64,000 nt of DNA from a virus (lineage: Duplodnaviria; Heunggongvirae; Uroviricota; Caudoviricetes): IMG/VR virus record IMGVR_UViG_2880389630_000005. One strand, 5' to 3'. Shown one piece after another: positions 52,826 through 57,461 of the stretch; within the stretch, counting starts at the first letter, position 1, and the number at the start of each line of letters is the position of its first letter. Both the position numbers and the translations under genes were made by a program. The notes under the pieces are model-generated. The model was not told where the DNA came from, made no database searches, and saw only the letters and a list, made by a program, of their open reading frames with translations.

Positions 52826-54934
52826 TTACTCCCGCTCCATTCCGCTTAGCGATGCCACAATCCCACCCCTCGCTAAGCGCTGAAACTCTTCGTTTCCGAC
52901 GGTATCACGTATCGCTTTTACAGCAGCTTTATTTGCCATAAATCTGCGTTCAGCCGCCGCTAATGCACCATCACTTGCCCCAACCTTAACTGCCTTTGTT
53001 GCCTCTTGAACAGCCTTTTCAATAGCGTAACGACCACTGCGGGATGCAGCTAACTTTTCTATCGTCCCTTTAGCTATAGATCCAGAAACAGCCCCCACAA
53101 CACCGCCAACAATCCCTCCACCAGTGGTACCAACAATAGCCCCTGATGTTGAATTGCCTATTGCATTGAGAACTGTCATGACAGCTTTTGGCAGTCCTTG
53201 CTCAAGAGAGTTAATTGCCGGTATAGAGCGCCCAGTATGCTCTACATATCGCAGTGGTCTGGTTGCTGCTCTGGCAAGGTCGCTGTATGCCCTAGCAATC
53301 TTACCCATTTCTGGCGAGTGCTTGCTAATGGCAGTAATATTCTGCGGCGTAAGGATCGACGCTATATGGAATACGCCAGCAGACTCTGATTTACCGCCAC
53401 GCACCCCTTGCGATACCGCATCTTGTAATATTGATGCAATTGCTGGAGATCGCTCAGACTCTGGCAGTGCGCCAATAATCTGATGAAACTTTCCTGTCCC
53501 ACTTTTTGATGAATTTTGCAAGGCTTTAATACCATCAGTGACTAACTGATCAGTTGCAAGGTTTCTAAACGCTGCTTCAGCCTGTTCTTGTGCTGTAAAT
53601 CTTGCTTTTGACAGATCATTAGCTTTTTGCCAGTCATCAAGAAAACCGCCATTTTGAGCCATTATGCGCATATCTTCCGTTGCTGCATCACGAAGCTCCG
53701 CCATGCGCCTTGCCGTATTTGCCTCACCAGACCTTATATACTTCTGCTCAGCGTCAGCAAGTTTACTTCGCCATGCCTTCATGGCATCAAACGTGATTCC
53801 TTTTTTACCAGTTTTAGCATAAGCAGATGCAAATTGTTTCATCTCAGGAGTTAGCGGCATACCAGCCAAAATATCACCCTGAATTGTAGCGTTCAGGTTT
53901 GACATTCTGGCCTTTGCGTCAGGCATCGTGGAGCGGACGCTATCCCATGCTGCCTTTTCTGAGTTCTTCATTTTATCAATACTTGCTAAAACCCTTTGTT
54001 TTATGGCTGCACTTTTTTCTGATGCAGATCCAGCCTCAGCACCAAGTTCATCAAGTGCTGAGTGGAATTTCGACTGTATTTCACTAAAAGCCCTAGTATG
54101 TGCATCCTGAACAATTCCTGGTTCGGATGCCAATATCCCTTCGGCTTGTGCAATTCCACGACTTCCAGATCGCATTCCTGGTGTTAATGCGTTTATATCA
54201 ATTCCAGCAGACTCAGCCGCTTTTGCTACATCTTCGGACACATTAGCGGCCTGACTGGCAATTGACTGACGCCCAGCACCTGACTTTGCCATCCTGGAAA
54301 CATCATTAGCAGAATTCAGTGCTGCACCACCAAGAGCCTGTGAAACCCTTGGAGCAATAACGCGCCCGACACCTGAAAGAACGCCTTGAGCACCAATATT
54401 GATACCACCGTTAATGGCAGCATTTTGTGCAAAGTCGCCCTCCTGATTTGCAGCATCAGCAAGAGAACCTGCAATCATGTTTCCTGCGGAACCGATATCT
54501 TCAGCGAGCTTTGCTGGCGCTCCAGCAGCTTTTGCCGCTGTGCCAATTGGCAGGAGATACCCACCAATTGTTTCACCGGCTTGCGCGTAAGGGTCTGTCG
54601 GTCGATCGACTGGACGATAGACATCATCCAAAACCTTGGGGCCACCAAGCCCCTGGCTGATTGCATTAATCAGACTTGCGCCACCCTGCAATACGTCAAA
54701 TGGTATGTTTACCAGACCACGACCAGCCTGTTCTGCAATTTGCCCTGCACTTTGACCACCAGTGAGCCAGCCAGTGGCTTTTCCTACCAGAGATTGTTCT
54801 TCTGGCTGCGATTGGTTTTGAGTGGATTGATCACCAGAAGACAGCATCTGAGCAATGCGACGTGCTCCCTCAGTATCACCGGCAGCATCAGCATTCCTTA
54901 ACGCCGTCATCAACTGTTCGCGACTATAGGCCAT
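52826..54934 (-). CDS. DNA ejection/injection protein (P22 gp16-like)
   Basis: 702 aa; Gly/Ala-rich; position downstream of gp20. Confidence 0.8.
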
Positions 54935-55409
54935 TACTGCCCTCCGAGATATTTATTAATCAAGTCATCATCAGAAAGCTGCTGTTGAGACGGTTGTATG
55001 TCCTTCCCGTATTTCTGTTGCATACGTTTCTGAGCCATCTCAGTGGTTTTTATGATTGTTTTGATAGCTGCTCTGGCTGATTTTTCAGACTGATTTGGGG
55101 ACAAACTACCAATAGCATCCATTACCTTTTGCCCCTCGGCATTACTTAAAGCCCCCATCCCTTTCATCTGCTGAATGCCAGATAAGAATCCCTGAGATTT
55201 CAGTGTGTCAACCAGAGTTTCTGTATCAGCAGCCTCTGTTCCTGGAATGAATCTACTCGATAGTGGGTTTAGGTTTGTTCCGAAATATCCCGTGAATCCT
55301 GGGCTATTAAGAACTTTTGTAGCCGTCTCTATCGTTCTGGAGAGATTATCCATTCCAGAGTTGTACGCATCGGCCTTATCTCGCTTTGCCTGCTCCATAG
55401 CTTGCTGAT
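54934..55409 (-). pseudogene. Ejection protein gp20-like, C-terminal fragment (split by IS911)
   Basis: Frame joins 56663-57461 when IS911 and one GAT copy are removed. Confidence 0.75.
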
Positions 55410-55481
55410 TGAAGTGGTTTACTGAATTTGGCCACCTGAACAGAGGTGATATGCTCACCTCAGAACAACACAGGTGCCATA

Positions 55482-55784
55482 ATGAAAAAAAGAAATTTCA
55501 GCGCAGAGTTTAAACGCGAATCCGCTCAACTGGTCGTTGACCAGAATTACACCGTGGCAGATGCAGCCAGCGCTATGGATGTCGGCCTTTCCACAATGAC
55601 GCGATGGGTGAAACAATTACGTGATGAGCGGCAGGGAAAAACACCAAAAGCCTCCCCTATTACCCCGGAACAAATTGAAATCCGTGAGCTCAGGAAAAAG
55701 CTACAACGTATTGAAATGGAAAATGAAATATTAAAAAAGGCTACCGCGCTCTTGATGTCAGACTCCCTGAACAGTTCTCGATAA
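55482..55784 (+). CDS. IS911 OrfA (HTH transposase N-terminal part)
   Basis: 100 aa [29 protein letters not shown]... matches IS911 OrfA. Confidence 0.9.
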
Positions 55785-55810
55785 TCGGGAAACTCAGGGC
55801 GCGTTATCCT

Positions 55811-56629
55811 GTGGCCACTCTCTGCCATGTGTTCGGGGTCCATCGCAGCAGCTACAAATACTGGAAAAACCGTCCTGAAAAGCCAGACGGCAGACGGGCT
55901 GTATTACGCAGCCAGGTACTTGAACTGCATGGCATCAGCCACGGCTCTGCCGGAGCAAGAAGCATCGCCACAATGGCAACCCAGAGAGGCTACCAGATGG
56001 GGCGCTGGCTTGCTGGCAGACTCATGAAAGAGCTGGGGCTGGTCAGCTGTCAGCAGCCGACTTACCGGTATAAACGTGGTGGTCATGAACATGTTGCTAT
56101 CCCTAACTACCTTGAACGGCAGTTCGCCGTGACCGAGCCAAATCAGGTGTGGTGCGGTGATGTGACCTATATCTGGACGGGTAAGCGCTGGGCGTACCTC
56201 GCCGTTGTTCTCGACCTGTTCGCAAGAAAACCAGTGGGCTGGGCCATGTCGTTCTCGCCGGACAGCAGGCTTACCATGAAAGCACTGGAAATGGCATGGG
56301 AAACCCGTGGTAAGCCCGTCGGGGTGATGTTCCACAGCGATCAAGGCAGTCATTATACGAGCAGGCAGTTCCGGCAGTTACTGTGGAGATACCGGATCAG
56401 GCAGAGTATGAGTCGGCGTGGAAACTGCTGGGATAACAGCCCAATGGAGCGCTTCTTCAGGAGTCTGAAGAACGAATGGGTGCCGGCGACGGGCTATGTA
56501 AGCTTCAGCGATGCAGCTCACGCAATAACGGACTATATCGTTGGATATTACAGCGCACTAAGACCGCACGAATATAATGGTGGGTTACCACCAAACGAAT
56601 CGGAAAATCGATACTGGAAAAAACTCTAA
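55811..56629 (+). CDS. IS911 OrfB (DDE catalytic domain; made as OrfAB by -1 frameshift)
   Basis: 272-aa ORF in -1 frame relative to orfA; frameshift site AAAAAAG upstream. Confidence 0.85.
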
Positions 56630-56659
56630 CTCGGTGGCCAGTTTTTGTTGACCACTTCA

Positions 56660-57461
56660 GATTCTGCAATCTCTTGTCCTGCAATTCAGCAAGTTTTAAG
56701 GCATTAGTTTCATTTGCGATGAGTCTGTCGTATTTCTTGTCCTCTAATTCCATCCGACGAAGATTGACATTTTGTTGCGCAATATTGTTGCTTGCCCACC
56801 CTCTGGCATTTGTCATGTCATTATTACGGATTGTTTCGTTAATTCTTTGCTGCTCCTGCTGGCGACCAACCATCTTGTCCTGATAATCCAGCATTTTATC
56901 CGGACCAACAGCCCCTAGCGTCATAGTAGTCAGCATGTGTGATAGCTGCTCTGGATTCTGGATACCTGTCTGAATCATCCAGTCAGCATTCGCCCCCACG
57001 CGATTTAACCTGTCCTTGTTGTCAGTAATGAATTTACTGTAGGCTTCCGGTCCCTGAGAAAGAGCGACGTTAGCCCTCATGGCTAAATCGCCCATATCGT
57101 TGCGTTGCTGATCATTAAGACCGGAAAACGCCTGTTGTGCCTGTGCAACAAACGCTGGATTTTCCTGGGCAAACTTAAATAGTCCCGATGGATCACCAGA
57201 AGCCCATGCATCAGCGTGAACCTTATTGAACGCACTAATAGCTTTCTGTTGCTGTTCCTGCTTATAAATATCAGCAACTCCAGCCAGACCACGTAACGCG
57301 GTCAGACCAACGTTATTTGCACCTGATCGAGCCAGTTCATTGTTTTCGCGGATCAGACCAAGCGTTGCGTTAATGTCGCTTGCCTTTGGCGCATTCTCGT
57401 TTTGCGCACCAATGCCAGCCAGAAAACCACCAGAATTAATACCCTGTTGCCACGTAGCCAT
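56660..57461 (-). pseudogene. Ejection protein gp20-like, N-terminal fragment (split by IS911)
   Basis: 267 codons from [12 protein letters not shown]... until the IS911 right end; track ORF 56505-57461 reads into IS sequence. Confidence 0.75.

Follow-up and report, generated by a model that had tools for sequence, protein, structure and literature searches.

The window, by which the whole 64,000-nucleotide stretch of DNA analysed is meant, covers part of a P22-like prophage of about 40 kb that sits between dacD and sbcB. A P22-like virion module was recognised in it, with the gene order gp10-gp26-gp14-gp7-gp20-gp16 as in the P22 annotation. The upstream neighbour of gp20, the gp7 ejection protein gene (57472–58164, minus strand), is intact and matched Pfam PF25688 (P22_gp7) over its full length (E = 3e-132). 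The downstream neighbour, an intact gp16-type ejection protein gene (52826–54934, minus strand), matched PHROG 770 'DNA transfer protein' (E = 1.6e-200) and is labelled 'P22-gp16 family phage DNA ejection protein' in other genomes; its ATG overlaps the gp20 stop codon (TAATG), and a Shine-Dalgarno sequence of its own, GGAGG, lies 6 nt upstream. NCBIfam holds no model for gp20 or gp16. The tailspike gene is intact, and the immI region, which the original prediction had described as intact, contains whole mnt, arc and ant genes. A PADLOC search of the immI genes and the adjoining accessory genes gave no match.

The split gp20-type gene and the inserted element

The gp20-like gene is present in two minus-strand parts flanking a 1250-bp element. 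The 5′ part (56660–57461) comprises 802 nt, made up of 267 codons and one further nucleotide, and the 3′ part (54934–55409) comprises the 2 nt completing codon 268, a further 157 codons and the stop codon. The element is bordered by a GAT target-site duplication, whose left and right copies (neither assigned a strand) lie at 55407–55409 and 56660–56662, respectively; the empty sites of intact alleles contain a single GAT. Excision of the element together with one GAT joins 54934–55409 to 56663–57461 and gives 1275 nt, a multiple of three, encoding a 424-aa minus-strand ORF with no internal stop. The uninterrupted 1275-bp gene, with one GAT at the site and 100% identity, was found in complete E. 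coli genomes, so the junctions between flanks and element are not a chance arrangement. The protein of this intact allele is WP_029700929.1, and strains p11A and S5 are examples of relatives that carry it. These data bear out the original prediction of a 1250-bp IS copy at 55410–56659 with a GAT duplication, correct in coordinates, length and duplication, and of a split gene of about 424 aa with a 267-codon N-terminal part that rejoins in frame.

The rebuilt 424-aa protein matched Pfam PF16928 (E = 2.4e-105; 351.5 bits against a cutoff of 29.7) through residues 12–220, on the N-terminal side of the break, and its residues 1–421 were aligned to positions 1–434 of the 435 in the PHROG 2534 profile (E = 4.6e-176). 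Taken separately, the N-terminal fragment covered positions 1–277 of this profile and the C-terminal fragment positions 282–434 of 435 (E = 9e-46). Residues 1–214 are 86.4% identical to P22 gp20, and the rebuilt protein is 61–65% identical to SE1Spa Gp20 and CUS-3 over about 90% of its length. A search of PDB sequences with the rebuilt protein as query returned no match. Judged by these alignments, the rebuilt ORF is a P22 gp20-type ejection protein and the two fragments adjoin each other within a single family member; the outcome named beforehand as fatal to the proposal, flanks that do not join into a gp20 homologue, was not encountered, the joined protein matching PF16928 and PHROG 2534 end to end.

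The inserted segment (55410–56659, plus strand) is a complete and intact IS3-family element, IS911-like, with TG...CA inverted repeats on comparison of the two ends. It starts TGAAGTGG... at 55410 and finishes ...CCACTTCA at 56659, and when the ends are compared the terminal inverted repeats agree at 9 of 9 end bases and then again at GGCCACC. The left repeat (IRL, 55410–55445, plus strand) starts TGAAGTGGTTTACTG and the right repeat (IRR, 56624–56659, plus strand) ends ...GACCACTTCA; their extent of about 36 bp is our assumption, taken from the published end length of IS911. On the plus strand the element carries orfA (55482–55784; 100 aa), with an HTH_Tnp_1 domain (PF01527, E = 6e-14), and an orfB frame (55739–56629) with the DDE integrase core (rve, PF00665, E = 1e-31). 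An A AAA AAG programmed −1 frameshift motif (A6G; 55733–55739, plus strand) is in register with orfA, and the OrfAB fusion built by frame arithmetic is predicted to have 382 aa. NCBIfam model NF033516 (IS3 family transposase) was matched with 380.6 bits, its cutoff being 160. The element agrees with the IS3/IS911 group in its size (about 1.2–1.5 kb in that group), in its imperfect inverted repeats with TG...CA ends, in its 3-bp duplication, and in having an orfA (frame 0) and an orfB (frame −1) whose fusion at A6G gives a DDE transposase.

Over its 1250 bp the element is 100% identical to many copies labelled by PGAP as 'IS3-like element ISEc52 family transposase', and it shares 94.3% nucleotide identity and 96.6% OrfAB identity with an IS911-annotated copy. 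The naming used here follows the NCBI/PGAP labels of the identical copies and that one IS911-annotated copy. It had originally been called IS911; the affiliation to IS911-like elements stands, and the name is amended to ISEc52 after the NCBI label of identical copies. On sequence identity the element is a close relative of the IS911-annotated copy and probably best called ISEc52.

Distribution of the interrupted allele and other ISEc52 insertions

A full-length gp20-like gene was present in about 24 of the 5,426 complete E. coli genomes compared, several carriers being labelled ST131. Among the 5,426, the interrupted allele was found in AREA_R485 alone; otherwise it occurs in the window and in a single draft assembly. 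The exact chimeric 318-aa product occurs elsewhere only on one draft contig, which reads from gp20 into the IS. In the part covered by the window, the prophage DNA is otherwise identical to that of R6, a relative without the gp20 IS. The window differs from AREA_R485 by a 35.8-kb Mu-like prophage at 4331–40146, absent at this place in AREA_R485, and by five clustered mismatches in cbeA. Only a very small sublineage carries the insertion, and the relatives of the prophage include ST131-labelled strains.

Since 100% identical intact alleles exist elsewhere and the interrupted allele is nearly unique, the insertion is regarded as real and recent; the recent date proposed from the undecayed flanks is further upheld by the identity of the IS to other copies. 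IS copies are a classic source of misassembly, and several identical ones are present in the genome, so an assembler might have put one in the wrong place. Such an artefact is extremely improbable, however, given the clean 3-bp duplication with exact in-frame rejoining, the same junction in the independent complete genome of AREA_R485, which differs by the 35.8-kb Mu-like prophage, and the contig running from gp20 into the IS in a separate draft assembly. An active ISEc52 very probably entered the P22-like prophage's gene for the gp20-type ejection protein at codon 267/268, generating the 3-bp GAT duplication that is usual for this group of elements. IS911 is known to transpose by copy-out-paste-in, passing through a figure-eight and then a circle (PMC1636345); the element in the window may take the same route, for which the identical copies at several new sites give indirect support.

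In the nin region of the same prophage, independent ISEc52 insertions were observed at three sites in three strains (AREA_R485, R6 and A1.S1.18). Inheritance of the AREA_R485 nin-region copy from an ancestor shared with R6 or A1.S1.18 was considered and rejected, as the three sites differ and have their own duplications.

The identical IS has inserted independently four times in a prophage of about 40 kb, with a separate 3-bp duplication at every site: once in gp20 and three times in a stretch of about 770 bp in the nin region (ninG and its neighbour). This number and clustering, set against a rough tally of only about a dozen lineage-specific IS gains overall in these genomes (an indirect count that includes partial and related copies), could be taken to mean that the insertions are not neutral and that gp20 is one of a series, the prophage being a preferred ISEc52 target or IS-crippled lysogens being selected. 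Against this, a gp20 knockout leaves induction and lysis working and so has no obvious benefit for the host, ninG is dispensable in lambda, no shared target motif or IR-like sequence was found at the four insertion sites, and local hopping from a copy already in the prophage could explain the second insertion in AREA_R485. A non-neutral origin is accordingly judged improbable. The broader proposal that the ST131-associated P22-like prophage is a recurrent ISEc52 target, with four independent insertions in roughly 20–25 genomes reflecting a local hotspot or selection for IS-mediated damping or crippling, is also unlikely. The gp20 insertion is most simply a neutral, recent transposition rather than an adaptation, and together with those of the nin region it is a hint of present-day ISEc52 activity in these strains, with repeated hits on this prophage.

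Expected consequence for infectivity

As found, the 5′ ORF reads 51 codons into the IS (56505–57461, with the stop at 56505). The gp20 gene would now give at most a 318-aa product, made of 267 native and 51 IS-encoded residues, which would retain the N-terminal half but have neither the distal part of the long helix nor any of the C-terminal domain. In a single-sequence AlphaFold2 model of low confidence (mean pLDDT 58), from which secondary structure alone was taken, the break falls in a predicted long helix (residues 219–300) that is followed by a C-terminal helical domain (residues 326–404). As the C-terminal half could not be aligned with P22 gp20, the mapping of the break onto domains is based on its position and on this low-confidence model.

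In P22, gp20 is known to travel in the virion and to be ejected at infection, and DNA delivery depends on it (PMC4992974; bioRxiv 10.64898/2026.09.03.749273). Its N-terminal half lines the extracellular channel, supplies the helix in the outer membrane and makes up the upper domains in the periplasm (bioRxiv 10.64898/2026.09.03.749273). It might be supposed that a functional channel is still formed by the N-terminal product, either alone or in combination with a C-terminal fragment translated on its own, and that the prophage remains infectious: the break spares the whole conserved Pfam domain (residues 12–220) and falls where the protein is variable and mosaic, and the C-terminal ORF is still open (154–174 aa; annotated by PGAP in AREA_R485 as a 154-aa 'hypothetical protein'). 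In addition, P22 gp20 amber fragments can be encapsidated (PMC4992974), so the truncated product may keep some residual function. Full tolerance of the insertion is nevertheless very improbable, since the C-terminal domain of P22 gp20 forms a dodecameric plinth that sits against the cytoplasmic membrane next to gp16 (bioRxiv 10.64898/2026.09.03.749273), the P22 E proteins are all essential, their deletions being lethal (PMC4992974; bioRxiv 10.64898/2026.09.03.749273), the C-terminal domain is conserved in PHROG 2534, and sequence inspection revealed no Shine-Dalgarno sequence before the ATG of the C-terminal ORF.

Loss of infectivity is the preferred reading. The insertion would leave gp7, gp16, the head, tail and lysis genes, immI and the accessory genes untouched, and a promoter and terminator scan of 54800–57600 gave nothing above the shuffled expectation, hence no evidence of IS-borne transcriptional polarity. 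With all other virion, lysis and immI genes untouched, the induced prophage would be expected to replicate, lyse the cell and assemble DNA-filled particles, and these would fail at DNA delivery, like P22 gene 20 mutants. The insertion thus probably stops the prophage from making infectious particles, as can soundly be inferred from P22 genetics. Taken together, a recent ISEc52 transposition into the gp20 gene of a P22-like prophage, probably abolishing infectivity, is very likely the best explanation of the locus.

The gp20 insertion is an ordinary event, in which a common 1.25-kb element has entered a prophage of an ST131-type E. coli strain. It is a textbook example of how an IS disrupts a structural gene of a prophage and has small wider significance; in a public RefSeq genome the locus already appears as an IS and a partial 'DNA transfer protein'. 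Literature searches on ISEc52 and on an ST131 P22-like prophage turned up nothing relevant to this locus. The insertion may serve as a clean, datable marker of a very small ST131-related sublineage, and as a natural C-terminal truncation of gp20 with which to probe what the plinth domain does in an allele other than that of P22.

Comparison with known elements and phages

The element shares with IS911 (IS3 family; Shigella dysenteriae/E. coli) the length of 1250 bp, the same ends, the 3-bp duplication, the 100-aa OrfA, the A AAA AAG −1 frameshift and a 382-aa OrfAB with the rve/DDE domain. It differs from the IS911-annotated copy by about 70 substitutions across the whole length and, within IRL, at positions 9–11 (TTT in the window, CAC in that copy); on the IRR side the final 44 bases are the same, and a 1-nt difference in an A-run lies just upstream. 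In contrast, no difference was found from ISEc52 as named in RefSeq/PGAP over the 1250 bp, E. coli Nissle 1917 and ST131 strains being among the carriers of copies with 100% identity.

The gp20-type protein has in common with P22 gp20 (E protein; PF16928) the place of its gene between gp7 and gp16, a Pfam domain that is matched over its full extent and an N-terminal region of 214 aa that is 86% identical, but the window allele encodes 424 aa and P22 gp20 has 471 aa, and past about residue 215 the two are not alignable. The C-terminal half represents a different mosaic allele within PHROG 2534, of the SE1Spa/ST-87/CUS-3 type (61–65% identity overall). As in P22 gene 20 amber and deletion mutants, full-length gp20 is lost while the other virion genes are intact, and the expected phenotype is likewise that of DNA-filled particles that do not deliver their genome. 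What sets the window apart from those mutants is that its lesion was made by an IS, in the resident prophage of a clinical-type lineage of E. coli.

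Insertion site and the interrupted gene

Reading of the sequence and a script comparison of its ends delimited an inserted element of 1250 bp, from 55410 (TGAAGTGGTTTACTG...) to 56659 (...TTGACCACTTCA), with imperfect inverted repeats at both ends and GAT directly outside each of them (55407-55409 and 56660-56662). When 54934-55409 and 56663-57461 were joined by script, the resulting 1275 nt gave a stop-free minus-strand translation of 424 residues, to which the 5' part of the gene contributes 802 nt (267 codons and one base). The coordinates of the IS and of the split gene, the 3-bp GAT duplication and the in-frame rejoining after a 267-codon N-terminal part were those of the original prediction. 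As it stands, the interrupted ORF continues for 51 further codons inside the IS to a stop at 56505, giving an ORF of 318 aa.

The rebuilt protein matched Pfam PF16928 ("DNA/protein translocase of phage P22 injectosome") over residues 12-220 (E = 2.4e-105) and PHROG 2534 from end to end, residues 1-421 falling on positions 1-434 of the 435 in the profile (E = 4.6e-176). Scanned singly, the N and C fragments took up positions 1-277 and 282-434 of the latter profile, so the flanks are contiguous parts of one gp20 homologue, and the refuting condition given with the original prediction does not hold. The neighbouring genes follow the order of the P22 annotation: gp7 (PF25688, full length), a gp14-like gene (DUF2824), the tail needle (PHROG 1219), gp10 (PF11134) and, downstream of the gp20-type gene, that of a gp16-type protein of 702 aa (PHROG 770, E = 1.6e-200). 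In tblastn comparisons with phage genomes, residues 1-214 were 86.4% identical to P22 gene 20, and across about 90% of its length the protein was 61-65% identical to SE1Spa Gp20, ST-87 and CUS-3; in a direct alignment with P22 gp20 the likeness faded past about residue 215. The C-terminal half is mosaic, judged from sequence comparison, and mosaicism of this kind has been reported for ejection proteins (PMC8954989).

Between gp16 and mnt, where P22 has sieA, three genes are oriented against the late operon (50993-52801, plus strand). They encode a 239-aa protein (PHROG 19868, function not annotated), a 182-aa PIN-domain protein whose gene overlaps the former by 10 nt, and an ORF of 161 aa without a family assignment. 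PADLOC gave no match for these three genes, which may form a toxin-antitoxin or exclusion cassette. For E. coli A1.S1.18 the annotation of the same prophage shows a truncated or split tailspike gene, PIN gene and adjoining gene (4965-7045 and 9863-10685 of L006, a stretch of NZ_CP146595.1) in spite of 99.96% DNA identity; the probable cause is homopolymer errors in that assembly, not real decay.

Distribution and age of the insertion

The full-length gp20-type gene was found in 24 of 5,426 complete E. coli genomes. Its best matches were uninterrupted 1275-bp copies, 100% identical, in genomes of which some are labelled O25b:H4-ST131 and others are human or wastewater isolates. The whole interrupted locus was present at 100% identity in exactly one of the 5,426, that of strain AREA_R485 (NZ_CP123349.1, 881253-883780), with which the window agrees fully in its P22-like prophage part. 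A search of a large assembly collection for the exact 318-aa chimera turned up one further contig only (draft GCA_050021315.1), which stops shortly past the gene in the manner of short-read contigs at repeats. Within the window, the IS was the only difference from the prophage of strain R6. This rarity among genomes, the independent assemblies and the limitation of the R6 difference to the IS indicate that the insertion is real, recent, as originally proposed, and limited to a tiny sublineage.

The window itself is not AREA_R485: a 35.8-kb Mu-like prophage is interposed between the matching parts 1-4330 and 40147-64000, the only departures from identity there being five changes clustered in cbeA. 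This transposable prophage (4331-40146), with Mu transposase, terminase and head genes and a 5-bp duplication (ACTGG or CTGGT), sits in a CP4-44-like yeeT/cbeA island; AREA_R485 lacks it at this site, and it occurs at other places in ST131 strains S13 and R4. The five mismatches fall in a 37-bp stretch inside cbeA, a yeeU-family antitoxin gene (40874-40910), the other 23.8 kb being identical, and have the look of a short gene-conversion tract derived from a paralogous island.

The element and its copies in related prophages

The element encodes an OrfA of 100 aa (PF01527) and, in the -1 frame, an rve/DDE integrase-core ORF (PF00665, E = 1e-31). A -1 shift simulated at the A AAA AAG motif (55733-55739), in register with orfA, gave an OrfAB of 382 aa, which scored 380.6 bits against NCBIfam "IS3 family transposase" (cutoff 160 bits); the "frameshifted" flag of the transposase in the PGAP annotation reflects this programmed frameshift, not decay. 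Many full-length E. coli copies are 100% identical to the element and are named "IS3-like element ISEc52 family transposase" by PGAP. For a copy annotated "IS911 family" on an E. albertii plasmid, identity was 94.3% at the DNA level and 96.6% for OrfAB, with differences at IRL positions 9-11. The element is therefore assigned by sequence to ISEc52, following the NCBI annotation of its identical copies; the earlier name IS911 is correct at group level. IS911-type transposition is known to pass through a figure-eight and a circle intermediate (PMC1636345), and this route is assumed for ISEc52 here.

AREA_R485 carries a second identical ISEc52 in ninG (NZ_CP123349.1 898706-899955, 3-bp duplication AAG), some 15.7 kb away from the copy in gp20 and inverted relative to it. 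The nin region is outside the window, which goes no further than the portal gene. Identical copies lie in the nin region of R6 (NZ_CP107178.1 897001-898250, or 29002-30251 of its stretch L003; duplication ATT) and of A1.S1.18 (NZ_CP146595.1 2120816-2122065, L006 28817-30066; CTT). These three sites all differ, two being in ninG and one in a neighbouring hypothetical gene, and the copies are all co-oriented with the nin genes; in sixteen further genomes with this prophage the nin region is free of the IS. Four independent ISEc52 insertions, three within about 770 bp, in a single prophage some 40 kb long suggest an excess over a uniform model, by a rough tally of IS-like places per genome with indirect counts. 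No shared target motif was found among the ISEc52 insertion sites of the prophage, and the nin-region cluster may be an insertion hotspot or a result of selection. The two AREA_R485 copies, in gp20 and in ninG, form a 1250-bp inverted repeat with identical arms, and homologous recombination between them could invert the intervening late-gene segment.

Expected effect and comparison with known systems

P22 gp7, gp20 and gp16 are ejected and build a trans-envelope channel; none of them is dispensable, and deleting them is lethal (PMC4992974; bioRxiv 10.64898/2026.09.03.749273). In the in situ structure of P22 gp20, residues 1-47 form the extracellular channel, about 48-67 an outer-membrane helix, 68-185 (PP1) and 186-255 (PP2) the periplasmic domains, and 256-435 a C-terminal plinth abutting the cytoplasmic membrane, where gp16 takes over (bioRxiv 10.64898/2026.09.03.749273). 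The break follows residue 267 and leaves the conserved N-terminal half of the gp20-type protein whole. In a single-sequence AlphaFold2 model of the rebuilt protein, of low confidence (mean pLDDT 58) and used for secondary structure alone, residue 267 lies within a long helix (219-300), and a helical C-terminal domain that is better predicted (326-404) follows it. The truncated product would, by position, be without an equivalent of the plinth, the C-terminal halves not being alignable with P22 gp20.

The defect should be confined to gp20, since a GGAGG of its own stands six bases ahead of the gp16 ATG and no terminator signal above chance was found in the antisense strand of the IS. Intact genes include those for replication, lysis, head, tail and tailspike; immI (mnt, arc, ant) is also whole, and this last point is in line with the original prediction. 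The induced prophage is therefore expected still to kill the cell and to release particles unable to deliver DNA. The host gains no evident protection from a gp20 knockout, so that a neutral event is favoured.

The original interpretation is supported, with refinements in the name of the IS, the mosaic C-terminal half and the phenotype, which we infer. The significance of the gp20 insertion is small, as for an ordinary event. Inactivation of prophage genes by IS elements is commonplace, RefSeq already annotates the interrupted locus in this way, and all the components are already known, identical IS copies occurring elsewhere and the gp20 family being well studied.
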